Below are positions 6,849-50,208 of a stretch of 64,000 nucleotides of DNA, one piece after another. Source of the DNA: Nitrosopumilus sp. (lineage in GTDB: Archaea; Thermoproteota; Nitrososphaeria; Nitrososphaerales; Nitrosopumilaceae); assembly GCA_965204345.1 (NCBI GenBank), contig OZ241981.1, positions 32,001 through 96,000 on the forward strand, read 5' to 3'. How positions within the stretch are numbered: position 1 is the first letter of the stretch; each line of letters starts with the position of its first letter. Below the pieces are notes generated by a model. The model did no database searches and was not told the origin of the DNA. It saw nothing but the letters and a program-made list of their open reading frames with translations. A program made the translations under genes and the position numbers.

Positions 6849-7387
6849 AACAGATATGAAATTGTCACTACACCTCAAAAAGCAAAGCTTGGCCATCCAT
6901 ATATGACCAAAAACAGGTTCTCAGGATGCACATTTTGATATACTGACCCTTTTGGATCAGGTGTAATGGCTAATTTGCTTGCTCTGTTACTAGCAATCTT
7001 TGCAAACTCTATGTCACGTATTCTTAACGGCGTCTTGAAAAGCGTTTAAGATTGAACAGCGTAAAACAAAAACAAAGGATTCTGTCTTATCAGTATGTTT
7101 CTAGATACAGTGATTTGATAATTAAAAAAACAGAAGAAAGAAAAAGAAAAAGAAGAAAAAATCCAGAATGAAATCTCAAATGCTTCTCTATTAACACAAC
7201 TCACAAAAAAGAAAAACCTGTGCGCCACTTGAAAAGAAAAGAAAAAATTGAATCTCAAATTAAAATCAAAAACTAAAAGACAAGCAACAAAAATTCAAAA
7301 AAAAAACAGATTGCCAAAAAAGATAAAAAACTAAAACTTGTCTGGCTCCAAAAATCCCCTAAAAAACCGCTAAATAGCCTGAAAATA

Positions 7388-8008
7388 TTATTCTAGCTTG
7401 ATGGTAATCTCCTCGCCATTTCCTATCGGGGATGTGGTGGTCTGCAATTTTGGGTTTTTCCTTAAATGATCTGATAACCTCCTCATCTCCTTTCTGTATT
7501 TTTCTGGATATATCATGTTGTCTGTGATGATTATTCCCCCGACAGAGACCATGGGCAGTACCATGTCAAAATACTTTATGACATTTTCCTTGTCTGCGTC
7601 AATTAGGACAAAATCAAAAAACTCCTCGAATTCTTTTTTTGATTTTAACTCTTCTAGTACGTTTGCAGCTATTCCCTCTTTGACTGTGACTGTTTTGCCA
7701 ATACCGGCATTTTGAAAATTCTCCCTTGCTCTTTTGATCTTATTTGGATTCTGCTCAATTGTGATAATTTTGCCTGCCTGCTCAGATATTGCCTCTGCAC
7801 ACCATATTGTGGAATATCCTGTGGACATTCCAATCTCAAGCATATTTTTTGCGTTCTTTAAGCGCAAAATCATGTTTAGCATTTCGCCTGTATCCCTTGT
7901 GATTGCAAGCATTCTGTCCTCTGGCAAAACATCCACTCTTCTTGTTTTTTCAAGGTTGGACTGTATGTCCAATTCCTTCAGTACTTTGAATATGGATTCT
8001 TTCATCAA
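7388..8008 (-). CDS. O-methyltransferase (class I SAM-dependent, caffeoyl-CoA type)
   Basis: LEIGMSTGYS, FDFVLIDADK, GGIIITDN motifs. Confidence 0.88.
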   Translation of the reverse strand: MMKESIFKVLKELDIQSNLEKTRRVDVLPEDRMLAITRDTGEMLNMILRLKNAKNMLEIGMSTGYSTIWCAEAISEQAGKIITIEQNPNKIKRARENFQNAGIGKTVTVKEGIAANVLEELKSKKEFEEFFDFVLIDADKENVIKYFDMVLPMVSVGGIIITDNMIYPEKYRKEMRRLSDHLRKNPKLQTTTSPIGNGEEITIKLE

Positions 8009-8092: not shown

Positions 8093-8485
8093 TTGAATTC
8101 AGGGATGACAACAAAGAAAAAGGCTGATCTATTGGACATAGTTCAGAAAATTCTCAAGTTGGACACCAAAATGAGATTTGCAGCCATAATTGATCCAAAG
8201 GGAAAGATCCGGGAAGCTATAATGAAAACGGGCAAAACCAATCTGAAATCCCAAAAGGAAGAAGAACATTTCTGTAAACAGGTCGCACAGAGAAGATCAA
8301 TGAGAAAAGAATTTGACAGGTCTCTTGGCAAAGTCAGATACGTTCATGTTGAGCGAGAAAAAGTCTCTCAAATGGTAATTTACACCAGACGAAATATTGT
8401 TTATTTCACTATGGAGCCTGAAATGCCAATTAATACCAAGATCAGGTTAATCACCAAAATCAAAAGAATCACTGCTGACCTCTAG
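8093..8485 (+). CDS. Thaumarchaeal DUF6659-like (roadblock/profilin-like) protein
   Basis: MRFAAIIDPKGK...MRKEFDRSLGKVRY...REKV pattern shared with 24183 and 29093. Confidence 0.7.
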   Translation: MNSGMTTKKKADLLDIVQKILKLDTKMRFAAIIDPKGKIREAIMKTGKTNLKSQKEEEHFCKQVAQRRSMRKEFDRSLGKVRYVHVEREKVSQMVIYTRRNIVYFTMEPEMPINTKIRLITKIKRITADL

Positions 8486-37965: not shown

Positions 37966-39123
37966 ATGATTTCAGACTCTGAAAATATTCGTAGAGCCAT
38001 CCTGTCTAGATGGCACGAATCTCTTTTAAGGCATGGCAATCTGTTCTCTTCTGATTTTGTGAGCGGTGCTAGTCCTCCGTCTGTATTTGTTGGATCATAC
38101 AACTACCCCAAAGTCCTCGTTGGTCCTATGGTGCCCCCAATTCATGGGGATACTAGTCTGTTAGATAGCCCTGAGCGATGGACAGGAAAGTCTTTAGAAG
38201 ACATTGTAAATTTTAGGCTCAATTTGGTCAGGGGCACACAAAAAATTCCAATAGGACAGACTGACGGGCGATACGTTGAAAATCTCCAAGAAGTTACAAT
38301 GTCTTCAAGGCCTATTGATTCTGATCTAGTTTTTCAGAGTTCTACTGCCCCTAGTGTTTCACTTGACGGTGAGAGTGCCCCTTTTGGTCCTATTGGCCAA
38401 ATAAAATCTGCAAAATTCTCTGCAAATGCTCCTGTAAAATCTATAGAAAAAACATACTATGACAAGGATCTAAAAGCTCAAGATGCTGTTTTAAATTTAT
38501 ATAATTCCGGAGTAGAAATTTCAAAAATCCAAAAATGCTTCAGTATTGGAATGCTCGGATGCAAAAGGAAGCTTGTTCCTACTAAATGGAGTATTACTGC
38601 AACTGATGATATTATTTGCAAATCGCTTACCGAGGACGTGTTAAACTACGGCCTGATTGACTCGCACAGGGTCTTTTCGTATGAGCATTTGGGGAATATC
38701 TTTTGCGTGGTATTGTTTCCACACCGATGGGTCTATGAAATGATTGAGGCCTGGTATTCTAACGGTGTCTTGGGTTTTGGCTCTGACTGTGAGGATGCCC
38801 GCGGAATTGATCATCCTCCCACTATTGCCGGTGCATATTTTGCTGCAAAACTAGGTGTTTTAGAATACCTTGTCAAAAATAAAGTTCAAGCAGGAGCTGT
38901 AATTTTACGAGAAATCCGTCCCGAGTATGCCATCCCTGTCGGTGTGTGGCAAGTGAGAGAGGGCGTCAGGGAGGCAATGAATAAAAAGCATCTCTTTGCC
39001 GATGATTTTGAGCACGCACTAACTTTGGCCTCAAATAAAACGAGCATCAGTAAATCTGAGTGGCTCATGCATGGAAATGTTGTCGAACTGACCAGACAGA
39101 AAGCTATTTCTGATTTTTTTTAA
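37966..39123 (+). CDS. nreA: Archaeal DNA repair protein Nre family
   Basis: SPPSVFVGSYNYPKV, LVPTKWSITATD, PVGVWQVRE, C-terminal PIP box QKAISDFF. Confidence 0.9.
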   Translation: MISDSENIRRAILSRWHESLLRHGNLFSSDFVSGASPPSVFVGSYNYPKVLVGPMVPPIHGDTSLLDSPERWTGKSLEDIVNFRLNLVRGTQKIPIGQTDGRYVENLQEVTMSSRPIDSDLVFQSSTAPSVSLDGESAPFGPIGQIKSAKFSANAPVKSIEKTYYDKDLKAQDAVLNLYNSGVEISKIQKCFSIGMLGCKRKLVPTKWSITATDDIICKSLTEDVLNYGLIDSHRVFSYEHLGNIFCVVLFPHRWVYEMIEAWYSNGVLGFGSDCEDARGIDHPPTIAGAYFAAKLGVLEYLVKNKVQAGAVILREIRPEYAIPVGVWQVREGVREAMNKKHLFADDFEHALTLASNKTSISKSEWLMHGNVVELTRQKAISDFF

Positions 39124-39189
39124 AATCTGCTGATTTAATTTTAAATATCATAATTTTGCATAAGTATTTTTTTGGGGGTTATTAGTAAA

Positions 39190-39736
39190 ATAATGAACTA
39201 TCTACCTTTCCTAACAATTCAAAAGATCATCAAACATTTCAGAAAAAGCTGCAGACAGAGGCAGTAAATACGCAGAAAAAAACTCTTAATCAATAATAAA
39301 GAACTTTGATAAACTCTGTAAGGAAAAATATGACAAACAGGTGGTGAGACAATTAAAAGCGATTCGTGATGAATATTTTACTAAAACTGGAAGAAGAAAT
39401 ATGACAAGCAGGAGATCAGACCAATAGCAGAATATCAAAAAATAGATCTAGGTATTGTTTACAAGTTACTCCAAGAGTGGATCAACTGGAACAGCAAGAA
39501 TATGCTTCTAAATGATATCCCAGTTTTTTCATGTATTAAAAAAATATCTCAGATATCACAACATAAAGATCACAAAAGAGGATATGGAAAATTCTCCGGA
39601 TTTTCCATACATGATCAAAGAGGAAAAACACCCACTGACAAAAGAGGAGCTGCAAGATATTGAGTCTGAGCAACAGGAAAAATTATCTCAAAATTATAGG
39701 ACAGTTATCAAGTGGATTAAGATTGATAGGACTTGA
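39190..39736 (+). pseudogene. Decayed N-terminal part of a thaumarchaeal tyrosine integrase
   Basis: Fragments IIKNFDKLCKEKY / VYKLLQEWINWNSK / LKKYLRYHNIKITKEDM...EEKHPLTKEELQDI in shifted frames with stops; no catalytic domain. Confidence 0.55.
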
Positions 39737-39759
39737 CAAGTACATTCTAATAAATATCA

Positions 39760-40085
39760 AAAAGTGAATTTTTCAGAATGAAAATATTATTACATGGTAT
39801 TTAGAAAAATTATCCATAAATTAGAGATTTCAATATGTAAGAATATCTCCTAAAATAAGAAATATCATTACACGGTATGATTTAGAAAAGAGAATAAATA
39901 TTCAAAGATTAGCGTGAAAAATACCAAAATCTACGTATAAGCCTGAACAATTTCTATGTCTGATCTTTAGAATTTAGGATAGATTGATTGGATTATCTTT
40001 GCATCGGAGAAGGGTATATTATCGAGAAGAAAACCATCTCTGAATTAAATCAAAAATGTTTGAAGTTCAAAGATGGATAAAATAT
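39760..40085 (+). pseudogene. tbp: Decayed TATA-binding protein gene
   Basis: VRISPKIRNIITRYDLEKRINIQRLA*KIPKSTYKPEQFLCLIFRI*D, then in shifted frames IFASEKGIL / KTISELNQ; aligns to the second repeat of the TBP at 46536-47075; stops at 39915 and 39975. Confidence 0.8.
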
Positions 40086-40127
40086 ACACTTGTCTAATCT
40101 TTTATTAGAGTTTTGTTGGTGGAAATA

Positions 40128-41474
40128 ATGGTGACACAGATAGAATTTGAGAAAGAAAATCTTCCAGAAGGATGGATTGTAACAGCAATTAGCAACATAA
40201 CAGAAACTGTACAAAAAATTAATCCTAAAGATACCCCCAATAAAATATTCCATTATTGTGACATAAATTCGATCGATAATAGTAGATTACAAATTACCAA
40301 TCCAAAACAAATTTTGGGTAAGAATGCACCATCTAGAGCAAGACAACTAATTAAGAAAAATGACATATTATTTTCCACTGTTCGAACATATTTGAAAAAT
40401 ATTGCGATGGTTCCAGAACATTTAAATGATAATTTGGCATCAACAGGATTTTGTGTTATACGAGCAGGAAAAATTAATGAAAAATTTATGTTTAATTATA
40501 TACAATCATCTCAGTTCATTGATCTAATAAACAGTGCACAAAGAGGAATAAGTTATCCAGCTGTAAGAAATAATGATGTACATAATAGCATTATTCCTCT
40601 CCCCCCACTCAACGAACAAAAACGCATCGTTACAAAAATCGAATCAATCTTCACACAGATTGATGCATGTAAAGAAGAATTAGATGTATTTGCATCGCAG
40701 ACCAAATCAGTTTCTTATAGTTTACAAACATTGAAGGGAAATATATTAAAACAAATGTTTGAAGAATTAAATAAAAAACACAGAGCAGATATGTTAGAGA
40801 AGGTGTGTATTGATATCCAATCGGGATTTGCTCAAGGGGAAAAAGATGTAAAAAATGGAATAATTCATCTTAGAATGAATAATATAGATACAAACTTCAC
40901 AATGAATTTTGAACTACTTCGGACTATCAATGCTACAAATAAACAAAAAGAAAAATATCTTTTACAAAAAAATGACATACTTTTTGTGAATACGAATAGT
41001 GTAGAATTAGTAGGCAAATCTGCTATTTTTACATTTGATAAAGACTGTCTTTATAGTAATCATTTAACACGTCTGCGCACTAATATTTCTATACTAGATC
41101 CAAAATTTCTCTTGTATTATTTTTATTATAAATGGATAAAACATGATTTTCGAAGTATATGTAATAAATGGATAAATCAAGTGGCAATTAATACTACAAA
41201 AATTAAACAACTACAAATTCCTCTTCCTCCCCTCAACGAACAAAAACGCATTGTTACAAAAATCGAATCAATCTTTGACAGGATTGATGTAAAACAAGAG
41301 GAAATGAAAAAGATTGAGATGCAGTTAAAATCAATTCCCGACAGCATTAATACATTGAAAGGCAGCATATTAAAAAAAGCATTTGAAGGTAAGTTGGTTC
41401 CACAGAATCCAAATGACGAACACGCATCTGTACTTCTTGAGAGGATAAAATCCCAAAAATCTAGGAAAATATAA
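40128..41474 (+). CDS. hsdS: Type I R-M specificity subunit (hsdS copy 1, complete, two TRDs)
   Basis: LPEGW, two IPLPPLNEQKRIV conserved regions, SILKKAFEGKLVPQNPNDE tail. Confidence 0.95.
   Translation: MVTQIEFEKENLPEGWIVTAISNITETVQKINPKDTPNKIFHYCDINSIDNSRLQITNPKQILGKNAPSRARQLIKKNDILFSTVRTYLKNIAMVPEHLNDNLASTGFCVIRAGKINEKFMFNYIQSSQFIDLINSAQRGISYPAVRNNDVHNSIIPLPPLNEQKRIVTKIESIFTQIDACKEELDVFASQTKSVSYSLQTLKGNILKQMFEELNKKHRADMLEKVCIDIQSGFAQGEKDVKNGIIHLRMNNIDTNFTMNFELLRTINATNKQKEKYLLQKNDILFVNTNSVELVGKSAIFTFDKDCLYSNHLTRLRTNISILDPKFLLYYFYYKWIKHDFRSICNKWINQVAINTTKIKQLQIPLPPLNEQKRIVTKIESIFDRIDVKQEEMKKIEMQLKSIPDSINTLKGSILKKAFEGKLVPQNPNDEHASVLLERIKSQKSRKI
40593..40666 (+). repeat. Inverted repeat A (left copy), 74 bp; partner 47835-47908
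   Basis: 73/74 nt identical to the reverse complement of 47835-47908. Confidence 0.95.
41233..41296 (+). repeat. Inverted repeat B (left copy), 64 bp; partner 47157-47220
   Basis: 57/64 nt identical to the reverse complement of 47157-47220. Confidence 0.9.
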
Positions 41475-41499
41475 ACACATGACATAAATTTACAAATAG

Positions 41500-42189
41500 T
41501 TGTTTATTCAAATTTCCAAGATAAAGAAAAAATATAATATCTTTACTAATAACATGCAAATGATTATGAGATCTAATTTACAAAATGATACTGGCCTAAA
41601 AATTCACAATAAAATAATTTTACAATTTTTTAAAGATTGTAAAGATAAAAAATTGTTATCCAATACAATAAAACCACAACAGAATAATACTATATGTACT
41701 CGTTGGGATATATCTAAGTTAACCGATCAAGCAATTCAAAAAATACGTAAACATAGGATTGATTTAAAAAACAATGAAAAAACACAATTTCTAAGTGATA
41801 AAGAACATGATGCCTTACAGTTTTCTCGCTGTGTGTCTTTTTTGAGAGACACTACCGAAGATTTGAAAATTTCATTACAGTTAATTATTGATCCATCACA
41901 AGTAAAATCATGTACTGAGCTTGGAAAATACCTTAACGAAATTTATAATAAACTAGGTTATAATGACGACAAGAAATCCAAAATGAATCGTGCCTTTCAA
42001 AAAGATCTCAGAAATGCATTAAGTCATAACAATTATTCGTATAAATGTGATAAAAACCATGTAAAGAGCATAACATGGCAAGATCATAATCAAAAACACA
42101 CATGGAATCAAGTGGAATTGTCCAAATCCATCTCAAAGATAATTTGCATAAATGGACTAATTGGCAAAATAATTAATGGGAAATTCTGA
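41500..42189 (+). CDS. Hypothetical protein with HEPN-like RxxxxH motif
   Basis: DLRNALSHNNY in a helical context; AT-rich; true start probably near 41554. Confidence 0.6.
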   Translation: MFIQISKIKKKYNIFTNNMQMIMRSNLQNDTGLKIHNKIILQFFKDCKDKKLLSNTIKPQQNNTICTRWDISKLTDQAIQKIRKHRIDLKNNEKTQFLSDKEHDALQFSRCVSFLRDTTEDLKISLQLIIDPSQVKSCTELGKYLNEIYNKLGYNDDKKSKMNRAFQKDLRNALSHNNYSYKCDKNHVKSITWQDHNQKHTWNQVELSKSISKIICINGLIGKIINGKF

Positions 42190-42197
42190 TACCGTGC

Positions 42198-43697
42198 TTA
42201 TTTTGGGATTTCCTTGTTGATAATGTCTTTTATATCTTCAAATGACTTGATCATGCCCTTTCTTAGATCAATAAACTGATCAATTAATTTGTCTGGTGGC
42301 AGAACAATTGTTTCAATTACATCTGTTGGATTGTTGGAGTCAAGATTGAAATCCTGAATGTCTTTAACATTAATTTTCCATGCATTTTCATTTGATGTCT
42401 TCTTTTTGAACCATTTTTCAATCTCTGCAAAGTCGTCATATGCGATTGGGTTTGACTTTGTATATTTGGGATTCTTTGCACGAGTTACTCCACGCAATCG
42501 TTCGGCTACCTTCATTTGATAATACCAAATTTCTTTGGTTGGTCCTGTCTTGTCAAAAAACAGTATGTTTGTTGCAATTGATGTGTAAGGCTCAAAAACA
42601 GTTTTGGGCAGCCTAATTATCGTATGCAAGTTAAATTCTTCAAGAAGTTTTTTCTTGATTTTAGAGGCAACGCCTCCTGCAAACATTGGACCATCTGGAA
42701 GAATAATTCCACACCGTCCTCCTTCTTTTAGAGAATACATGATGTATAACAAGAATGAAAGAGCAGTATCTGATGTCTGCATTCCTACAGGTAGATTGGA
42801 TGAAATTCCTTCCTCCTCTTCCCCCCCAAATGGTGGATTCGTTATGATAAGATCATACTGGTCATTTTGAGAAATTTCTCTCAGAGGATTAACAAGTGTG
42901 TTTGCTCTGATAATGTTTGGTTTGTCTACCTCATGAAGAAGCATATTCATCATTCCTAAAAGATAAGGCATGGATTTTTTCTCGATCCCAAATAATGTGT
43001 TTGTAGTTAGTTTCTTCAAATCTCCTTTTGTTTTTTGTTCATGTCTTAGAAACTCCAAAGATTCTACCAAAAATCCACCTGTACCACATGCAGGATCTAA
43101 TATCTTTTCAGATTTTTTTAGACTAGGGTTGATTTGATTTACAATAAACCGAATTACAGGTCTTGGTGTGTAAAATTCTCCACTATTTCCTGCGGCATCT
43201 CTCATCTCAATTAACATATCTTCATAGAGTTTTGCCATGGTGTGAATGTCATCAGTATTGATAAAATTTACCTTATCTATCAGATTAATAATCTGTCTGA
43301 GGAGGTATCCACTGAGTATTCTATTGTTTAATTCTTTAAAGATCGTTGCAATGACATCTCTTTGTTCAAAACCTTTATCACCTGTCAGTTTTGAGAGTTT
43401 TGGAAATAATTTATTATTTACAAATGAGATTAGATCAGGACCTGTTAAAACCTTGACAGTACGTCCTTTCTTATCTTTTTCTGCTGCCCAATCCTGCCAT
43501 CGTAATCCCTTTGGTATTGCCTCCACATATTTTCTATTTAGAGCAGCCCTCTCTCTTTCAAAATCATCAAAACTCTTTAGGAATAAAATCCATGCAATTT
43601 GAGGAATTCTATCAACATCAGTATTAAGACCTGCATCTTTTCTCATTAGATCTCTTGCAGATTTTATTATAGAACGAAGTGAATGTGCATCCATCAT
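42198..43697 (-). CDS. hsdM: Type I R-M methyltransferase subunit (m6A)
   Basis: GEFYTPR, LDPACGTGGF, NPPF, IIRLP. Confidence 0.96.
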   Translation of the reverse strand: MMDAHSLRSIIKSARDLMRKDAGLNTDVDRIPQIAWILFLKSFDDFERERAALNRKYVEAIPKGLRWQDWAAEKDKKGRTVKVLTGPDLISFVNNKLFPKLSKLTGDKGFEQRDVIATIFKELNNRILSGYLLRQIINLIDKVNFINTDDIHTMAKLYEDMLIEMRDAAGNSGEFYTPRPVIRFIVNQINPSLKKSEKILDPACGTGGFLVESLEFLRHEQKTKGDLKKLTTNTLFGIEKKSMPYLLGMMNMLLHEVDKPNIIRANTLVNPLREISQNDQYDLIITNPPFGGEEEEGISSNLPVGMQTSDTALSFLLYIMYSLKEGGRCGIILPDGPMFAGGVASKIKKKLLEEFNLHTIIRLPKTVFEPYTSIATNILFFDKTGPTKEIWYYQMKVAERLRGVTRAKNPKYTKSNPIAYDDFAEIEKWFKKKTSNENAWKINVKDIQDFNLDSNNPTDVIETIVLPPDKLIDQFIDLRKGMIKSFEDIKDIINKEIPK

Positions 43698-43728
43698 TAC
43701 TCATAATCGTATCGACATTAAATATGAT

Positions 43729-46095
43729 TCAGTTGTCTCTATACAATTCCTTTGTTAATTGTATTATTGCACCATCATATTCATCACCATCTTTGAATCT
43801 GTGATTGATGATTTCAGTAGGGCCTCCAAACTGTTTGAATTTTGGCAATTTCAAAACTCCTCTTTCCTCCAACTCTTGATACCCCTCCTCTGCATAATGA
43901 TCCAATATCACCTCTAGAACTTCTCGTGCTTTGTTCGGATATTTCTCCAAAAATGCCTTTTTATGTACAGAATTGATCCTCTCTAATCGAGTTTTTGCAT
44001 CTGCATTAAATGCAAAATGTAAGAGCATATCAAATGAATCAATCTTAGCCATCTGAGTGATTTCTTTAAGATGTGAAAAACTAACGCCTCTCTCTTCTAG
44101 TTGCTTTACAAAATGCTGTCTTTTTTCAGGATCTGTCCATATCTTGTATAGTTTTGTTTGTTCATCATTTACTAGACGGCGAACAGTCTCTCCAGTATAA
44201 TCTTGATAAGAAATAAGCCTATTCTGATTAATTGATTGATCAAAAATTAAAACCGATTCACCACGAATTTCTACTTTTTTTCCATTTATGTGATATGTTT
44301 TAATTGTTTGTGATTCTTGTTCTTCTTCTGCTTTATCTTCTAGTGCCTCTTTTACTGCATTTCTTCTTTTCTCTTCTGCACGTTCTAAGATTTTTTTTTC
44401 TTTTTCTTTAGTAATTATTTCTTGTTCTTCTTCAGTTTCTGCAATTGCAGGACCATCCCATTCTACATCCTCAAACAATCTACTAGTTTTTCTATAATCT
44501 ATAATTGAAAACCACATCTTATCTTTTGGTTCATAGACACGGGTACCTCTACCAATAATTTGTTTGAATTCAGTCATGGAATTAATGCTCTTATCTAATG
44601 CAATTATCTTGCATGTTGGAACATCTACGCCTGTTGACATTAATCTAGATGTAACTGCAACAATTGGAAAATCTTTGTTTGGTTCCTGGAATTGATCCAA
44701 GTATTCTCGTCCTATTTCACCTTCAGCAGAAACTATTCTGACACAATAGTCATGTCTTTCTCCAGAATAATTTCGAATTAGTTTAGTCATTGCTTGTGCA
44801 TGTTCTGAGTTTTGACAAAATAAAATCGTCTTGTTATATTTTTGATTATTTTTCTCCAAAAAATCTACAAGGTGTTTTGCTACGGTCTTTCGTCTCTCAT
44901 CAACAATTAAAATTCTGTCAAAATCTTTATAGCTGTATGTTTTGTCATCAAGTATCTTTCCATCTAAATCCGTTTCCCCTGGTTTTGGAATATATCCCGT
45001 CAGATCAATTTCAAGATTAACCCTGTGAATCATGTATGGTGCTAAAAAGCCATCTTCAATTCCTTGTTTTAGACTGTATGTGTATATAGGAATACCAAAA
45101 TAATCATACGTATCTTTATTTTCGTCCTTTCGTTTAGGAGTTGCAGTCATGCCTATGTGAACAGCATCTTTGAAATAATCCAATATCTTTCTCCAGCTCC
45201 CATCCTCATTGGAGCTTCCTCTGTGACATTCATCAATTATTATGTAATCAAAGAAATCTTTTGAATATTGCTTGTACAGCTCACAATCCTCTTTATCTAC
45301 ATCAAGTGCTTGATATAGTGCAAAATACATACTATATGCAGTCTGTGCAACTTTTTGGATCTTGTGTCTTGCTTCACCAAAACCTGCAAATGCATTATTT
45401 TTTGCTTGATCTAACAAAACGGTTCGATCTGCTAAAAATAAAATTTTTGGATGTGGGGTATCTTTTTTCCAGAGTTTTTGTGCAATTTGATAAGATATGA
45501 ATGTCTTGCCAGTTCCAGTCGCAAGATTTAAGAGTACGCGCTTCTTTCCTGCAAGAATTGCTGTTAATGTGGAATGGATTGCAATTTCTTGATAGTACCG
45601 AGGTTCCATGGGAGATCCTCCTGGATCTTTTGAACTTCGATCCAACGACTCTAATATAACATTCATTTGTTTTTTATTAAAATTTATACCTTCTTGGAAT
45701 CTCTCTAGTAATTCTTGAGGTGTTGGAAATTTATCTATTGTTTGTTGTTGTTTTTTGGAAAAGTCATATTCTTCAATTTTCTGTCCATTTGTTGCAAAAG
45801 CAAATTTTAACTCCATTTTTTCAGCATATTTTATTGCCTGACTCATTCCTTCATCATGTGGTTTGTCCCATGCTTTAGCTTCTATTACTGCAATTTTGTA
45901 ATCATCACCCAACTTGAGAATGTAATCAGCTATGATTGGTTGTGCCCTTTTTCCAGTACGGCCATCAGGAGTAATTCTGCCTTCATTAATTTTATATTCC
46001 CTAATGATTTTATCTAATTCCCAACCAGATTCTGCTAGCTTGGGATCAATATGTCTCATACAAGTGGTTGATTCGGACATCTTTTCTTCAGTCAA
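43729..46095 (-). CDS. hsdR: Type I restriction endonuclease subunit R (EcoAI/type IB-like)
   Basis: ADY...IEAK nuclease motif, RYYQ, ATGTGKT, DECHRG, TATP, QIIGRGTR, EcoEI-type C-terminus. Confidence 0.95.
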   Translation of the reverse strand: MTEEKMSESTTCMRHIDPKLAESGWELDKIIREYKINEGRITPDGRTGKRAQPIIADYILKLGDDYKIAVIEAKAWDKPHDEGMSQAIKYAEKMELKFAFATNGQKIEEYDFSKKQQQTIDKFPTPQELLERFQEGINFNKKQMNVILESLDRSSKDPGGSPMEPRYYQEIAIHSTLTAILAGKKRVLLNLATGTGKTFISYQIAQKLWKKDTPHPKILFLADRTVLLDQAKNNAFAGFGEARHKIQKVAQTAYSMYFALYQALDVDKEDCELYKQYSKDFFDYIIIDECHRGSSNEDGSWRKILDYFKDAVHIGMTATPKRKDENKDTYDYFGIPIYTYSLKQGIEDGFLAPYMIHRVNLEIDLTGYIPKPGETDLDGKILDDKTYSYKDFDRILIVDERRKTVAKHLVDFLEKNNQKYNKTILFCQNSEHAQAMTKLIRNYSGERHDYCVRIVSAEGEIGREYLDQFQEPNKDFPIVAVTSRLMSTGVDVPTCKIIALDKSINSMTEFKQIIGRGTRVYEPKDKMWFSIIDYRKTSRLFEDVEWDGPAIAETEEEQEIITKEKEKKILERAEEKRRNAVKEALEDKAEEEQESQTIKTYHINGKKVEIRGESVLIFDQSINQNRLISYQDYTGETVRRLVNDEQTKLYKIWTDPEKRQHFVKQLEERGVSFSHLKEITQMAKIDSFDMLLHFAFNADAKTRLERINSVHKKAFLEKYPNKAREVLEVILDHYAEEGYQELEERGVLKLPKFKQFGGPTEIINHRFKDGDEYDGAIIQLTKELYRDN

Positions 46096-46535
46096 TTTTC
46101 AACATAAAATTTTCAACATATTTCTAGATAAATGTTCTTTTTGAAAAATCAAATATTTTAGAATAAAATCAAGATTTGAATCTGCGAAATATTTTTGAGA
46201 ACTGATCTATTATACAGCTAACCATAGTGTGTTTATATCAGATCAAGAATAGGTGTGACTCTGAAAATATCTGGAATTTCTTGTATGGTGTAACAAGCAT
46301 TAGCTTGAACTCCTCTGTACAGACTGATTTTCACCTCCAATCATAACATTAACAAGTATTTACTTGTTGGACAGTAACGCAAAATATGCAAAATGAGAGA
46401 TGTTCATTAGATCTACAATTGTGGTACTTCGCACTATTGGATCTTTGGTTTTTATTTAGATTAGGACATATCTAGACAACTGATTACAAAATAGATTCAA
46501 TCTTAACAATTATTAGAAAAAATAAGAAAATTTCA

Positions 46536-47075
46536 CTAGATACATCTTACCTTGATATCAAATAATGCAGAATTTACTTCTGCAATGGTTTTTGCCCCTG
46601 CAATAACTCCTTTTCCTGATGCAAACAAAAGTGCTACACAGCTATCTTGAATTCTATATATCAAACCGGGAAATTGTTCTGGTTCATACATACTTTTTGG
46701 TAATATTCTTACAAGTTTTTCTATTGGCAAATTTTGTTTTAAATCGAATCGCGCTACAATATTTTGCACTTTGGGAGTAATTTTAATGAGTTTTGCAAGA
46801 TTATAATTATCCAGTATTTTTATTGCTTTTTTTAATTCTTTTTTAGATTGTGCAGGATTCTTTGTTCCAACTGAAATAAGTTTTCCATTTCCAAATACAG
46901 TAACTCGTCCAACCATCAAATCATCTTTTACATACCTACACCTGTATAAAGCAATATTTGAGCTGAGAAAGGGATATTTGTTAAAAGAAGCAATATCTAT
47001 TTTCTGTTTAAGATCTGCTGTAGTTACAGTGTTTTGAATTTTAATTCCTGCTACAAGCTTTGACTCTTTTTGCAT
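46536..47075 (-). CDS. tbp: Divergent TATA-box binding protein
   Basis: Two TBP repeats: IQNTVTTADL...VFGNGKLISVGTK and VQNIVARFDL...YEPEQFPGLIYR...LFASGKGVIAGAK. Confidence 0.9.
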   Translation of the reverse strand: MQKESKLVAGIKIQNTVTTADLKQKIDIASFNKYPFLSSNIALYRCRYVKDDLMVGRVTVFGNGKLISVGTKNPAQSKKELKKAIKILDNYNLAKLIKITPKVQNIVARFDLKQNLPIEKLVRILPKSMYEPEQFPGLIYRIQDSCVALLFASGKGVIAGAKTIAEVNSALFDIKVRCI

Positions 47076-47086
47076 TAAAATTCATG

Positions 47087-48346
47087 TTACCCTATCGCAT
47101 TAAAAATGAATGTATTATTCACATATGTGATTTTTTGTTTGATTAAATATAATATCTGCTTTACATCAATCTTGTCAAAGATTGATTCAATTTTGGATAC
47201 GATGCGTTTTTGTTCGTTGAAAGGCGATAGTAAGACAGGAATAGTTTTCATTGCTGTCTGATTAAGTTTCAATCGTGTTGTCCCAGTTACATATCCATGA
47301 TAATTCACCTGATTCAAATAGTGGCAAAGAAATTTGTTGATCAATAATCCAGATATTCCTTTAAGAACATGAGCATGATTATTAACCCAACTTTTTCCAT
47401 TAACAATGTAGGCTTTGTTTTTGAAAGTTTCAAAAAATGGTGCACCGTCTTCTCCCAACAAAACCAATTCTTCATCAAAAATATAATCATCAATCAAGCC
47501 AACTTGACCAGTAGCACCATAATATGGAATATTTCCAGTACGATTTTTCCGTTCACTAGAATTTACTGGTATTCTTTTTCTGTCCCAAATTTCTACAATA
47601 TCTTCCAAATTGATCTTAATCCAACCTTCTGGAAGATTCTCTTTCTCAAAAATCAACTCTTTCTCAGAACTCTTATGCAATCTCCTCAAAAGCATCTCTG
47701 CTGGCTCATCAGCTGGATCCTGTGAAACCAGCTTGCCCTCAAAGGCCTGCTTGAGCACGCTACTTCTTAGCATCCCCAGGCTGCCAGAAGATGACTTTAT
47801 TTGAGATGCAAGTGCCTCCAGCTTGTTTTGTGCCGCATCAATCTGTGTGAAGATTGATTCGATTTTTGTAACGATGCGTTTTTGTTCGTTAAGTGGGGGG
47901 AGAGGAATTGAATATATTGCCAGCTTTTCATATTTTATTCGAGGGTGTTGAACTCCTGTCATATTTCTATTAGCAAAACGTACAACCTGACTGGTAGATA
48001 AAAATAACATAATGTATTTGCTAACCAGATTGTCATTTTGTTGGAAAACCAATATGTCTGTGGAACACACTCCGTTAAAATCTGGAATTGCTACTTTGTT
48101 TAGATATGGACGTAATTTTCCATAAAGAATATCTCCCTTACTAAAGACATTTTTTGTGCTCTTTGTATCTTTTGAATTGGCCTTTCCAATAATTTTTCTT
48201 GAATTACTTTCTATGTGTTCTAATCCCACAAAAGGTTGATTTTTCTCATTCTTTGGATCAAATTTTCTTTTTGATTGATTCAGAACATTCAGTAAATCTG
48301 TTCTAATCCACCCTTCTGGAAGATGCTCTTTCTCAAAAATCAACAT
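47087..48346 (-). CDS. hsdS: Type I R-M specificity subunit (hsdS copy 2, two TRDs, C-terminal conserved helix truncated)
   Basis: LPEGW x2, KLRPYLNK, IPYYGATG, WVNNHAHVL; homology ends abruptly after IDVKQ. Confidence 0.9.
   Translation of the reverse strand: MLIFEKEHLPEGWIRTDLLNVLNQSKRKFDPKNEKNQPFVGLEHIESNSRKIIGKANSKDTKSTKNVFSKGDILYGKLRPYLNKVAIPDFNGVCSTDILVFQQNDNLVSKYIMLFLSTSQVVRFANRNMTGVQHPRIKYEKLAIYSIPLPPLNEQKRIVTKIESIFTQIDAAQNKLEALASQIKSSSGSLGMLRSSVLKQAFEGKLVSQDPADEPAEMLLRRLHKSSEKELIFEKENLPEGWIKINLEDIVEIWDRKRIPVNSSERKNRTGNIPYYGATGQVGLIDDYIFDEELVLLGEDGAPFFETFKNKAYIVNGKSWVNNHAHVLKGISGLLINKFLCHYLNQVNYHGYVTGTTRLKLNQTAMKTIPVLLSPFNEQKRIVSKIESIFDKIDVKQILYLIKQKITYVNNTFIFNAIG
47157..47220 (-). 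repeat. Inverted repeat B (right copy)
   Basis: Partner of 41233-41296; marks the point where hsdS2 homology stops. Confidence 0.9.
47835..47908 (-). repeat. Inverted repeat A (right copy)
   Basis: Partner of 40593-40666. Confidence 0.95.
48305..48337 (-). repeat. Inverted repeat C, 33 bp (tttgagaaaga..atcttccagaagg.tggatt); other copies 47618-47650 (-) and 40146-40178 (+)
   Basis: Three near-identical copies encoding FEKE(N/H)LPEGWI at TRD starts. Confidence 0.88.
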
Positions 48347-48559
48347 ATCAATTCTTTGTTTCTTTAATTTAAATTAGTCAAGTAACAGTTAAAGTGAAAA
48401 ATAGAATTTTATAAATCATAACAAATGAATCTCCTGCAATTGTTGCAAAGCTTTGAAATTATTGTACTATACTCCAAGGAGATTGTCATTGTGACATAAA
48501 CGTACTTTGTCTTTTCTTCAGATATTATAGTTAATGGTTTTATCTAGTTTATTAGCCAT

Positions 48560-49486
48560 TTAGATCTCTATTTTATACATGACTTTTTTGAATTCCCTAA
48601 AGAGATCTTCTAGGGTAGGCGTCAGATATACATGATCAAGACCATTTTTGTGACCCATTAGCTTTTCTGCAATGTTATAGTTTACTGAATTGTCCAGTTT
48701 TAAGACAGTATTGTATCGCTTTCTAAAACCATGATCTGCTTGGACGTCAAAACGATTTTTTGATTTTATTCTTTTCAGGTTACTTTTCTGAATTATTCTA
48801 TAAATTGCAGAACGAACGCCGTTCCAACCTAATTGTTTTGGAAGGAATTTGGTTGTTGCAAATATGGGAGTATCTTTGTAAAATATTTCTCCTTGATTTT
48901 TACGATATTCATGATAAGCTTTCAATGCCTTGGTTGCTTGTGGTGTAAGAAATGCCCAATACTCCTCAACATGTCCCGCATAAAGCAATATGCCAGTGCA
49001 ACCATATGACATCTTCATCATGTGTTTTATGGATAAATCGTGATCAAAAACTCCCACCCTTGCTCCTGTTGAACTAAAAAAGTACACCAAAGCTTTGTTC
49101 CTAAGGCTTGTTGTGTTGGATAATAATTTCTTGATTTCTTTTGTCGTATATGCCCTCAAGCTTTGCGTTTTTTGCTTTTGTGGGAACATTTTGTTTATGA
49201 TGTTCCAGTTAAGATTAATCTCATTCATTATACAGAAATGCTTTATGCCCTGAAACTTTGATGGGATAGAATTGGGGTTTGTAGTACGCTTTAGCTCGAT
49301 TAAATAATTCTCAAGATTATACTGCAAGTCTGTATTTGGAATACTTGTTAGTTGATTTTGGGATGTAATGTTTGCAAAATTTAAAAAAGAGTTAAGATGT
49401 GATGTATAATTCTTTTTTGTGTATTTTGATTTTATCGACTCTTCAAATAATAATGAACATCGATGTTTAGTTATTAAATTACTCAT
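48560..49486 (-). CDS. Tyrosine recombinase/integrase
   Basis: STGARVG (R), HGFRKR (H-x-x-R), LMGH...HVY (H, Y): catalytic set intact. Confidence 0.9.
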   Translation of the reverse strand: MSNLITKHRCSLLFEESIKSKYTKKNYTSHLNSFLNFANITSQNQLTSIPNTDLQYNLENYLIELKRTTNPNSIPSKFQGIKHFCIMNEINLNWNIINKMFPQKQKTQSLRAYTTKEIKKLLSNTTSLRNKALVYFFSSTGARVGVFDHDLSIKHMMKMSYGCTGILLYAGHVEEYWAFLTPQATKALKAYHEYRKNQGEIFYKDTPIFATTKFLPKQLGWNGVRSAIYRIIQKSNLKRIKSKNRFDVQADHGFRKRYNTVLKLDNSVNYNIAEKLMGHKNGLDHVYLTPTLEDLFREFKKVMYKIEI

Positions 49487-50208
49487 GTATTATTTTATTG
49501 TAAAATATTTATTTTTGTACATATGTTTATGAAATTAGAGCATCTTAATTTTTAGGATCATAATACTTTATCAAGATTGTTTTATATTCCCAGCATAAAA
49601 TCACAAACAGATTATTCTCTGATGATTTGGCATCTTGTAATATTTCCAAAATTGTTCCCATCTTTAAGATATGATTGCCTGCAGCTCATAATTAGTCATA
49701 CTGATAAAAAATATCGTTAGATTTACGTATGGAATTAAGGTCCAGAATGCCAAGTATCAATCTTTGCAGAAGTTAATATAACCTGGTGTAAAATATTGCC
49801 CTACACCTAAAATTATTACTGTAAAAACCAAAGAAAACCCAGAATAGTCTGCATTGGATTCTATTAATGAACTAACTGATGATTTGGACAAAACTTGGTG
49901 TTTCTTAGTTTAACTAAAATCAAATCCTGATTATAAAGACATTAATTTTTTTCCATATCATATGCATATGCCAAAGGGCATCAAAGGTAACTATCTTGCG
50001 CAAATTTGACACTTGCAGATGAATTTGATTACAGTTCATCAAGAAATGCCAATTTTGAATCCATGAACAATTACGTAACGTAATCATCATCTTCTGGGGC
50101 ATGTGTGCGTGCGTTTCTACTCTATCTTTTTTTTCATCATTGGAATTATCTGCTGATCTGCCCTAATCAGAGAGCATAAATCCTAGATTTAAATAAAAAA
50201 ATGAAACG

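Follow-up and report, generated by a model that had tools for sequence, protein, structure and literature searches.

A probable hsdS inverton of a type I restriction-modification system, adjoined by its own tyrosine recombinase gene, in Nitrosopumilus

The subject of this analysis is a type I restriction-modification (R-M) locus in which two hsdS genes lie in inverted orientation beside a gene for a tyrosine recombinase, found in a 64,000-nt window of DNA from Nitrosopumilus sp. (family Nitrosopumilaceae; assembly GCA_965204345.1, contig OZ241981.1, positions 32,001-96,000), the term 'window' denoting that entire stretch. The assembly comprises 2.12 Mb in 9 contigs (the window being labelled G000:C1:32001-96000), displays 3.49% contamination and contains several alternative-allele contigs, and the sequencing runs that hold the region include sponge metagenomes. 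Coordinates are window positions unless a contig or locus label (a C, L, G or X code) is given. As judged from its sequence, the locus is probably a recombinase-driven hsdS inverton, or shufflon, and its parts are arranged as follows (ORF, open reading frame).

39126..50019: low-GC island, variable among strains, with all parts of the system inside it; flanked by Nre (37966-39123) and DUF432 (from 50209)
40128-41474, + strand: hsdS1 (ORF open from TTG 40113; Pfam Methylase_S, E 5.8e-23, 2 stretches)
41500-42189, + strand: 229-aa ORF downstream of hsdS1, of no Pfam or NCBIfam family
42198-43697, - strand: hsdM (N6_Mtase PF02384, E 5.3e-63; HsdM_N PF12161)
43729-46095, - strand: hsdR (ResIII, E 4e-38, EcoEI_R_C, E 2e-26, and Helicase_C all pass their cut-offs)
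46536-47075, - strand: TBP paralogue (Pfam TBP, E 1.9e-31, 2 repeats)
47087-48346, - strand: hsdS2 (Methylase_S, E 6e-33)
48560-49486, - strand: 308-aa tyrosine recombinase, the proposed invertase, 213 bp beyond hsdS2

The GC content of the island is 0.28-0.35, against 0.40-0.42 in its flanks. An initial annotation, made from the letters of the sequence, had described hsdS1 and hsdS2 as facing each other across the 229-aa ORF, hsdM, hsdR and tbp, with an intact tyrosine recombinase approximately 210 bp beyond hsdS2, and every one of those placements is confirmed. The hallmarks of a type I system are all present, in the form of an HsdM of the N6-adenine methyltransferase kind, an HsdR with a superfamily 2 (SF2) helicase motor (its HSDR_N_2 score, 21.9 bits, lies under the 25-bit cut-off), and HsdS proteins with two target recognition domains (TRDs), each hsdS gene containing two PF01420 stretches. 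The four TRDs are indeed different from one another, as had been claimed, with pairwise identities of 18-26%. Read from its N-terminus, hsdS1 encodes TRD1, site A, the central helix, TRD2, site B and a full C-terminal tail of 58 residues that forms the usual C-terminal helix, and hsdS2 encodes TRD3, site A', the central helix, repeat C', TRD4, site B' and a tail of 22 residues. Those 22 residues after B' are unrelated to the hsdS1 tail, and the long C-terminal helix is missing from hsdS2; the four possible TRD arrangements are therefore probably not equivalent, to the extent that this can be read from the sequence.

The TRD borders are marked by inverted repeats, the coordinates of which had been given exactly in the initial annotation.

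40593-40666 (+) against 47835-47908: repeat A, 73/74 identical, inverted
41233-41296 (+) against 47157-47220: repeat B, 57/64 identical, inverted
40146-40178 (+): repeat C, coding for FEKENLPEGWI at the start of a TRD, with two inverted copies
47618-47650 (-): repeat C', at the start of TRD4, 31/33 identical to 40146-40178
48305-48337 (-): a further copy of repeat C, at the N-terminus of hsdS2, 30/33 identical to 40146-40178

An identity profile displays a sharp drop on both sides of repeat A, and within B/B' only three identical stretches (19, 16 and 12 nt) attain 12 nt or more. Within each of repeats A and B lies a dyad-symmetric 11-6-11 core, in which two inverted 11-nt arms enclose a 6-nt spacer.

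40640-40667 (+): site A core, spacer TCACAC at 40651-40656
47834-47861 (-): site A' core, spacer GTGTGA on the + strand, that is, TCACAC inverted; motif at 47837
41264-41291 (+): site B core, arm 41264-41274, spacer TTGACA 41275-41280, arm 41281-41291
47162-47189 (-): site B' core, spacer TGTCAA on the + strand, that is, TTGACA inverted

The spacers are identical within each inverted pair (A/A' and B/B') and differ between A and B, such that the mismatches of A with B' and of B with A' fall almost solely within those 6 nt. A search of the 2.12-Mb assembly with the strict motif ATCAATYY-N6-RRATTGAY returned 8 matches, all of them at the A and B positions of four hsdS genes, four in the window and four in contig C3, an alternative allele of the island; the confinement of all eight to these genes indicates that the repeats are not a product of chance. 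Repeat C contained no dyad core in the motif scan and is, on that sequence criterion, probably not a target of the recombinase.

The protein encoded beside hsdS2 is sufficiently divergent in sequence that its assignment is decided by fold and catalytic residues. Its PF00589 score (25.2 bits) falls below the gathering cut-off of 27.1 bits, and a search of its sequence against the PDB returned no match at E <= 0.01. An AlphaFold2 model built with 23 sequences attained a predicted local distance difference test (pLDDT) value of 87.7 and was matched by Foldseek to 65 structures at E <= 0.001, among them archaeal XerA (the best, at E 2e-9), Cre, XerH, IntI and lambda Int, and the catalytic residues R143, H252, R255, H279 and Y287 show no variation across 21/21 homologues. 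The modelled fold and these residues make the protein, as had been proposed, an intact tyrosine recombinase; it has two domains and belongs to the 'simple site' kind. An identity as the XerA orthologue itself was considered and ruled out, as its score against the NCBIfam XerA model NF040815 (53.8 bits) is far under the cut-off of 220 bits. A degenerate relative of it, with 25-30% identity and many stop codons, lies elsewhere in the genome, at C1:1696953-1697736.

Taken together, the facing pair of hsdS genes with unlike TRDs, the inverted repeats that border these TRDs and the adjacent recombinase gene give the locus the architecture of a shufflon. In the mechanism that these features suggest, the 308-aa recombinase would bind the 28-nt core sites, which are located immediately behind each TRD, within conserved coding sequence of HsdS; because the partner sites are inverted relative to each other, recombination would invert the DNA between them, with synapsis of A with A' inverting 7.2 kb and synapsis of B with B' inverting 5.9 kb. 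The difference between the A and B spacers should prevent exchange of A with B, and with it the deletion of a TRD. The two inversions would generate four arrangements (TRD1+2, 3+4, 1+4 and 3+2), in each of which one hsdS gene would possess the full tail and be followed by the 229-aa ORF, and the other would possess the short tail and be followed by tbp-hsdR-hsdM. As the short-tailed hsdS would always precede tbp-hsdR-hsdM, hsdR and hsdM would be read from one of two fixed hsdS promoters, and if the short-tailed HsdS is inactive, exactly one specificity would be made at a time.

The generality of this association was examined among relatives. Homologues of the recombinase (E <= 1e-10) are present in 140/301 genomes of the family, a tally that includes seven genomes flagged as unpublished, none of whose loci were used. 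Twenty loci around such homologues were annotated by tblastn and Pfam, with the following result.

Homologues 54-70% identical, 13 loci: hsdS nearby in 9, cut by a contig end in 2, no hsdS in 2
Homologues 37-50% identical, 7 loci: hsdS nearby in 0, cut by a contig end in 0, no hsdS in 7

No hsd genes were found around the distant homologues (0/7 loci), and all 10 hsdS-adjacent recombinases fall into one group of 14 with support of 99/97. The members of the hsdS-linked group measure 303-312 aa and the remaining homologues 350-402 aa, and the hsd systems to which the group is linked belong to at least three divergent families. Inverted repeats of at least 28 nt occur in 10 of 14 loci scanned, and in 9 of those 10 they join hsdS copies or adjoin hsdS, at lengths of 30-739 nt and identities of 92-100%; in several loci the whole inverted repeat (31-35 nt) barely exceeds the core. 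The tenth, at L044, is located in transposase genes. Locus L046 is without a repeat only because the partner lies outside the fetched stretch, and in the full locus (L072, in genome G177) the repeats measure 854 nt (98.5% identical) and 56 nt (100%). Across 16 loci, 48 core sites were found, of which 38 (19 pairs) possess an inverted partner in the same locus with an identical spacer; a direct partner with an identical spacer was found for 0/48. A set of sites built to invert rather than delete would look like this, as far as sequence can tell.

The same linkage is visible when hsdS, motif and recombinase matches are combined across a genus sample of 41 genomes. A degenerate form of the motif occurs in 18/41 genomes (the reversed pattern was found once), and in 10 of 13 motif-bearing hsdS clusters or remnants a gene of the recombinase clade, or a remnant of one, lies within approximately 2 kb; a clade recombinase lies near 0/10 of the hsdS clusters that are without the motif. 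Fifteen further single motif matches lie outside hsdS matches and do not enter the cluster counts. As a negative control, 80 metagenome loci with relatives of hsdM (27-71% amino acid identity, with no near-identical alleles) contained neither the core motif (0/80) nor a clade recombinase (0/80); in the 40 of them with a layout shown, every hsdS match lies on the same strand as hsdM, and the HsdS proteins of these metagenome loci have other residues at the position of the core motif. The absence of the motif from recombinase-free relatives indicates that it is not a general property of hsdS genes and that it travels with the recombinase.

These observations bear directly on a different reading of the locus, according to which the recombinase would serve as the integrase of a cryptic integrated element, with the R-M genes as its cargo, the repeats reflect only conserved HsdS coding sequence, and the rearrangements described below result from rare homologous recombination. 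In favor of this reading, the 10.9-kb low-GC island is missing from, or replaced in, the dominant strain of one metagenome (X1) and differs between co-assembled alleles, and thaumarchaeal integrated elements often carry type I R-M systems together with XerC/D integrases in the part of PMC6563490 available to us. The deletion between C repeats, with 18 nt in common and no core, further demonstrates that homologous exchange does occur at the locus. Integration, however, would leave site copies in direct orientation, and the 38/48 sites with a matched spacer pair exclusively as inverted copies; in five loci (L049, L051, L055, L056 and L080) the recombinase gene is located between the inverted hsdS genes and inside the invertible segment; the motif is absent from the 80 recombinase-free hsdM relatives, and no clade member lies near the 10 clusters without it; and the length of the hsdS-linked clade sets it apart from its unlinked homologues. 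No direct repeat of at least 13 nt, such as an att site might provide, was found at the island borders (direct matches between the two border regions extend to 12 nt at most, and both copies of that one lie inside the island), and the 64-kb window contains no tRNA gene; thaumarchaeal att sites may, according to the accessible portion of PMC8371274, be as short as 8 bp. On balance we regard the integrase reading as improbable.

Several features of this comparative evidence weigh against the shufflon reading. The recombinase gene lies at the edge of the 10.9-kb island. Two of the 13 closest homologues are located away from hsdS, at L044 among transposases and at L048 beside housekeeping genes, and three of the 13 motif-bearing clusters have no clade recombinase nearby, namely a cluster of G291 at 1.14 Mb (with a recombinase elsewhere in the genome), a single hsdS in G330 and a remnant in G305. 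In the G330 locus (L077, G330:C1:1420000-1436000) the single hsdS lies between hsdR and hsdM, the HsdM is 86% identical to that of contig C3, and of the sites at 7692-7770 and 8367-8445 the second core is intact and the first has one changed base per arm; no homologue was found in G330 at E <= 1e-10 with the window protein as query. The counts are, moreover, not independent, because related genomes are kin and kinship inflates them. Finally, thaumarchaeal genes of the XerC/D type beside type I R-M genes have previously been assigned to cryptic integrated elements as their integrases (Krupovic et al. 2019, PMC6563490, in the sections available).

Direct evidence of rearrangement was sought in assembled contigs (Logan) from four sequencing runs, in which uncovered parts and differences in depth were not counted as evidence. 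In run X2, a sponge metagenome from an independent study with contigs 95-100% similar to the window, one contig passes from position 41280 directly to 47172 with a change of strand, as an inversion between B and B' would, and matches the window over at least 255 nt to either side of this joint. The depth of this junction contig (21.5) compares with a local summed depth of 22-30, and the junction links TRD2 of this allele to the hsdS2 tail and tbp. The crossover is bounded to 41265-41280, which corresponds to the left arm and spacer of the B core, and a 17-nt loose end before 41259 resembles B', as the reciprocal junction would. In run X1, contigs end at 41280, 41265 and 47188 (the equivalent of 41265), which are the edges of the 16 nt common to B and B'; this is at most a hint that the assembly graph branches there because both orientations are present. 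The inversion that the initial annotation had anticipated at its repeats has thus been found in nature for B only, and there between populations.

Runs X1 and X2 are both without 47639-48325 (TRD3, A' and the central helix), a deletion of 687 nt with its junction between the direct C repeats (47618-47650 and 48305-48337), which have 18 nt in common; hsdS2 is consequently a one-TRD gene in those populations. Repeat C, which had also been put forward as an inversion site, contains no core, and the sole event seen there is this deletion between direct copies. A minor X1 contig (depth 8.3, with 40 nt on its short side) connects 40593, at the end of TRD1, to 47616, at the start of TRD4, on opposite strands. 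Another X1 contig, with a depth of 217.5 against approximately 30 for the island, connects 39125, where Nre ends, with 50020, the shorter side of the joint measuring 30 nt; this indicates that the dominant strain in X1 lacks or replaces the whole 10.9-kb island, recombinase included.

The probable source runs, X5 and X7, contain the window arrangement at a depth of 86-106 together with a minor allele of the C3 type. Opposite-strand minor junctions in these runs (41216 to 48307 and 46535 to 47693) and minor skips (47220 to 47617 and 40178 to 41219), with depths of 12-55 in all, were considered as possible inversions and rejected, since they fit a C3-type allele with other TRDs between common repeats.

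A number of points in the contig data tell against programmed switching. Assembled contigs drop rare variants; the probable source runs display only the reference orientation for this allele, with an X5 contig unbroken across B (40637-46722, depth 86); and no A/A' inversion was seen in the contigs of the four runs. The X2 population differs from the window by approximately 1-2% in hsdM, and its inversion could be a single old event, within an interval that homologous recombination could hit by chance, given that it is one of only three identical B/B' stretches of at least 12 nt. An 8-nt loose end in X1, moreover, suggests that the repeat on the TRD4 side becomes B-like to the left of the core, and a hybrid repeat with its switch point there fits gene conversion better than spacer exchange.

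A further possibility is that the recombinase does act on these sites, only so rarely that it diversifies specificity among strains over evolutionary time, with no phase variation or phasevarion at the level of the population. For this allele each run is dominated by one arrangement, and arrangements differ between runs that are approximately 1-2% apart in sequence; in addition, the left hsdS of G177 is broken by a frameshift, and the loci of G309 and G327 are degraded to recombinase and hsdS remnants with stop codons. Against this, minor variants would be invisible in contigs, the X1 contig ends at the edges of the 16-nt B/B' stretch hint at coexisting orientations, and repeat A (73/74), like the partner repeats of relatives (94-100%), remains nearly identical beside TRDs that have diverged, which argues for frequent exchange. 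We consider rare switching of this kind rather unlikely, and more plausible than the integrase reading.

That the inverted junctions and the additional allele contig might be artefacts of assembling a strain mixture, with no real genome rearranged, is scarcely credible. The contamination of the assembly and its several alternative-allele contigs do invite the question, as does a perfect 739-nt inverted repeat in contig C3 that could be a product of the assembler. The X2 junction, however, extends for at least 255 nt on each side at full local depth in a separate study, the same deletion junction appears independently in X1 and X2, and the complete single-contig genomes G177, G274, G291 and G309 share the same architecture in different orientations. 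Contig C3 itself (10.6 kb) is a divergent allele of the window island, with a left (Nre-side) flank that is 99.5% identical and a first 201 nt that correspond to the C-terminal 67 residues of the same recombinase; its hsdM and hsdR come from another family than those of the window, and its module of tbp and hsdS tail is inverted relative to the flanks, making it a rearranged allele. The 739-nt repeat of C3 (L013; 837-1575 against 6962-7700) gives its two hsdS copies one whole TRD and both core sites in common, and it could be real (G177 contains 854 nt at 98.5%) or could represent an assembler path through an invertible segment.

Comparison with relatives, which the initial annotation had proposed, did disclose a change of orientation. 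In G177, the closest genome relative (HsdR 77% and HsdM 85% identical), hsdR and hsdM lie behind the recombinase-distal hsdS, the opposite of the window; that distal hsdS is again the short-tailed one, and the recombinase-proximal hsdS is of full length. The genes and repeats described in the initial annotation are confirmed, and its interpretation as a phase-variable shufflon is supported in part. A broader proposal, which we advance only tentatively, is that the Nitrosopumilaceae possess a dedicated family of hsdS invertases of their own, a short XerA-like clade with a core site placed in the HsdS reading frame and spread over at least three type I families, serving four-state phase-variable loci that would make one full-length HsdS at once and in which a dedicated TBP paralogue would be co-transcribed with hsdR and hsdM.

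PF01420 matches occur at three places in the genome, each an inverted hsdS pair. The third, outside the window (L014, at C1:227000-241000), is a second candidate hsdS inverton, in which the order is a TBP paralogue (+), two half-size hsdS genes (-), hsdR (-), a 448-aa tyrosine recombinase (-), hsdM (+), a half hsdS (+) and an hsdS fragment (+). It contains a perfect 62-nt inverted repeat of different sequence with no core of the ATCAAT type, and its recombinase displays no significant similarity to the 308-aa protein (best E 0.22). Contig C6 represents an allele without the L014 island, and the small contigs C2, C4, C5, C7, C8 and C9 contain no hsd or recombinase genes.

The TBP paralogue of the window begins 11 nt after hsdS2, is probably co-transcribed with it, and is 33-35% identical to the three canonical TBPs of the genome. 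Many type I R-M loci of this archaeal family, whether or not they contain the recombinase, have a diverged full-length TBP paralogue beside hsdS (L013:6337-6888, L014:1658-2215, L045, L053, L054, L090 and L096). Upstream of hsdS1, at 39837-39995 (+), lies a TBP gene fragment of approximately 53 residues that is 45% identical to the TBP of the locus, contains stop codons within its Pfam match and recurs in contig C3; its sequence suggests that the tbp module may once have lain on the hsdS1 side. The 229-aa ORF had been labelled a HEPN protein, a label that was not confirmed: it matches no HEPN profile of Pfam or NCBIfam, its translation holds RNALSH (an R-x4-H motif), and a language model (Atlas) gives a lead to PF18736 with a score of 0.93, at a level of recognition below the usual, so that HEPN identity is a lead only. 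A scan for sigma-70 promoters and terminators (65 promoter-like sites against 59.3 expected) was set aside, as its bacterial consensus is not applicable to an archaeon. A stretch of approximately 400 nt just beyond the recombinase (49592-49993) has 89% identity to C1:905742-906138, a sequence on the margin of a different strain-variable region (contig C8); the summed depth of this bin is raised in X5 and X7, and a loose end occurs at 49596 in contigs of X5, X7 and X2.

If the loci are true phase-variable switches, populations of these archaea would possess variable methylomes and variable restriction of viruses, in what would be the first archaeal system of the phasevarion type. The shufflon reading would also reassign a set of thaumarchaeal 'integrases' to another function. 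The hosts matter for the marine nitrogen cycle, the Nitrosopumilaceae being globally abundant ammonia-oxidising archaea, and those that live inside sponges are under heavy viral pressure, as described in the available part of PMC7848895. Archaeal phase variation becomes directly testable in this system, for which a candidate site and a recombinase clade have been defined, numerous natural variants exist and one inversion has been observed.

The initial annotation had known of no characterised example in archaea, and none was found in the literature searched, to which the supplementary data of PMC7394358 and PMC10028968 could add archaeal candidates. Archaea were deliberately excluded from one systematic scan for gene-altering inversions (PMC9881135); a long-read survey included no more than 42 data sets from archaea and mentions a computational survey only as a suggestion of inverton-mediated phase variation in these organisms (PMC10028968, a preprint); and a 2021 review of archaeal tyrosine recombinases, in its accessible text, does not use the word 'restriction' and treats inversion only as chromosomal rearrangement (PMC8371274).

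The window locus can be placed among several known systems. Programmed inversion of hsdS is a well-studied form of bet-hedging in bacteria, where it alters both the restriction of phage and methylation across the genome. The bacterial type I R-M systems that invert, termed 'epigenetic invertons', are described in the available portions of PMC7672463 and PMC7394358 as containing several hsdS genes, inverted repeats at TRD borders and a recombinase at the locus. As in SpnIII/ivr of Streptococcus pneumoniae (with CreX/PsrA) and the four-way switch of S. suis, inversion here would reassort TRD halves. In contrast to the bacterial invertons, in which one hsdS is expressed and its partial copies are silent, each hsdS gene of the window has its own start and encodes two complete TRDs, hsdM, hsdR and a TBP paralogue lie within the invertible segment, and the recombinase belongs to an archaeal XerA-like lineage in an archaeal host. 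In the hsd loci of Mycoplasma pulmonis (with the recombinase HvsR), two inverted hsdS genes reportedly flank hsdR and hsdM such that the whole block flips, and the same recombinase is said to invert the surface-antigen (vsa) genes as well. The likeness to M. pulmonis and to SpnIII/ivr that had been drawn for the window is one of layout; the recombinase lineage and sites differ from those of M. pulmonis, nothing comparable to the vsa inversion was seen here, and the window locus adds a TBP paralogue and two hsdS tails of unequal length.

At the level of the recombination site, dif and loxP sites consist of inverted arms of 11-13 nt around a spacer of 6-8 nt, the asymmetry of which sets orientation. 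The window locus resembles Xer/dif and Cre/loxP in combining a two-domain tyrosine recombinase of approximately 300 aa with a simple dyad site, and differs from them in that the sites lie within coding sequence, as inverted pairs in one locus, and the enzyme is not the XerA orthologue. The elements described in PMC6563490 are, in the part available to us, similarly strain-variable thaumarchaeal islands with hsdR, hsdM and hsdS beside a gene of the XerC/D type, and the words 'inversion' and 'TBP' do not occur in the portion of that paper's main text so available; in contrast to those elements, no att-like direct repeats of at least 13 nt and no tRNA target were found at the window island, and the recombinase clade tracks inverted hsdS pairs and the dyad site. 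Relative to the inverting type I systems already known, then, the Nitrosopumilus locus differs in (i) the lineage of the recombinase; (ii) the presence of two complete hsdS genes with unequal tails; (iii) the TBP paralogue in the operon; and (iv) the archaeal host.

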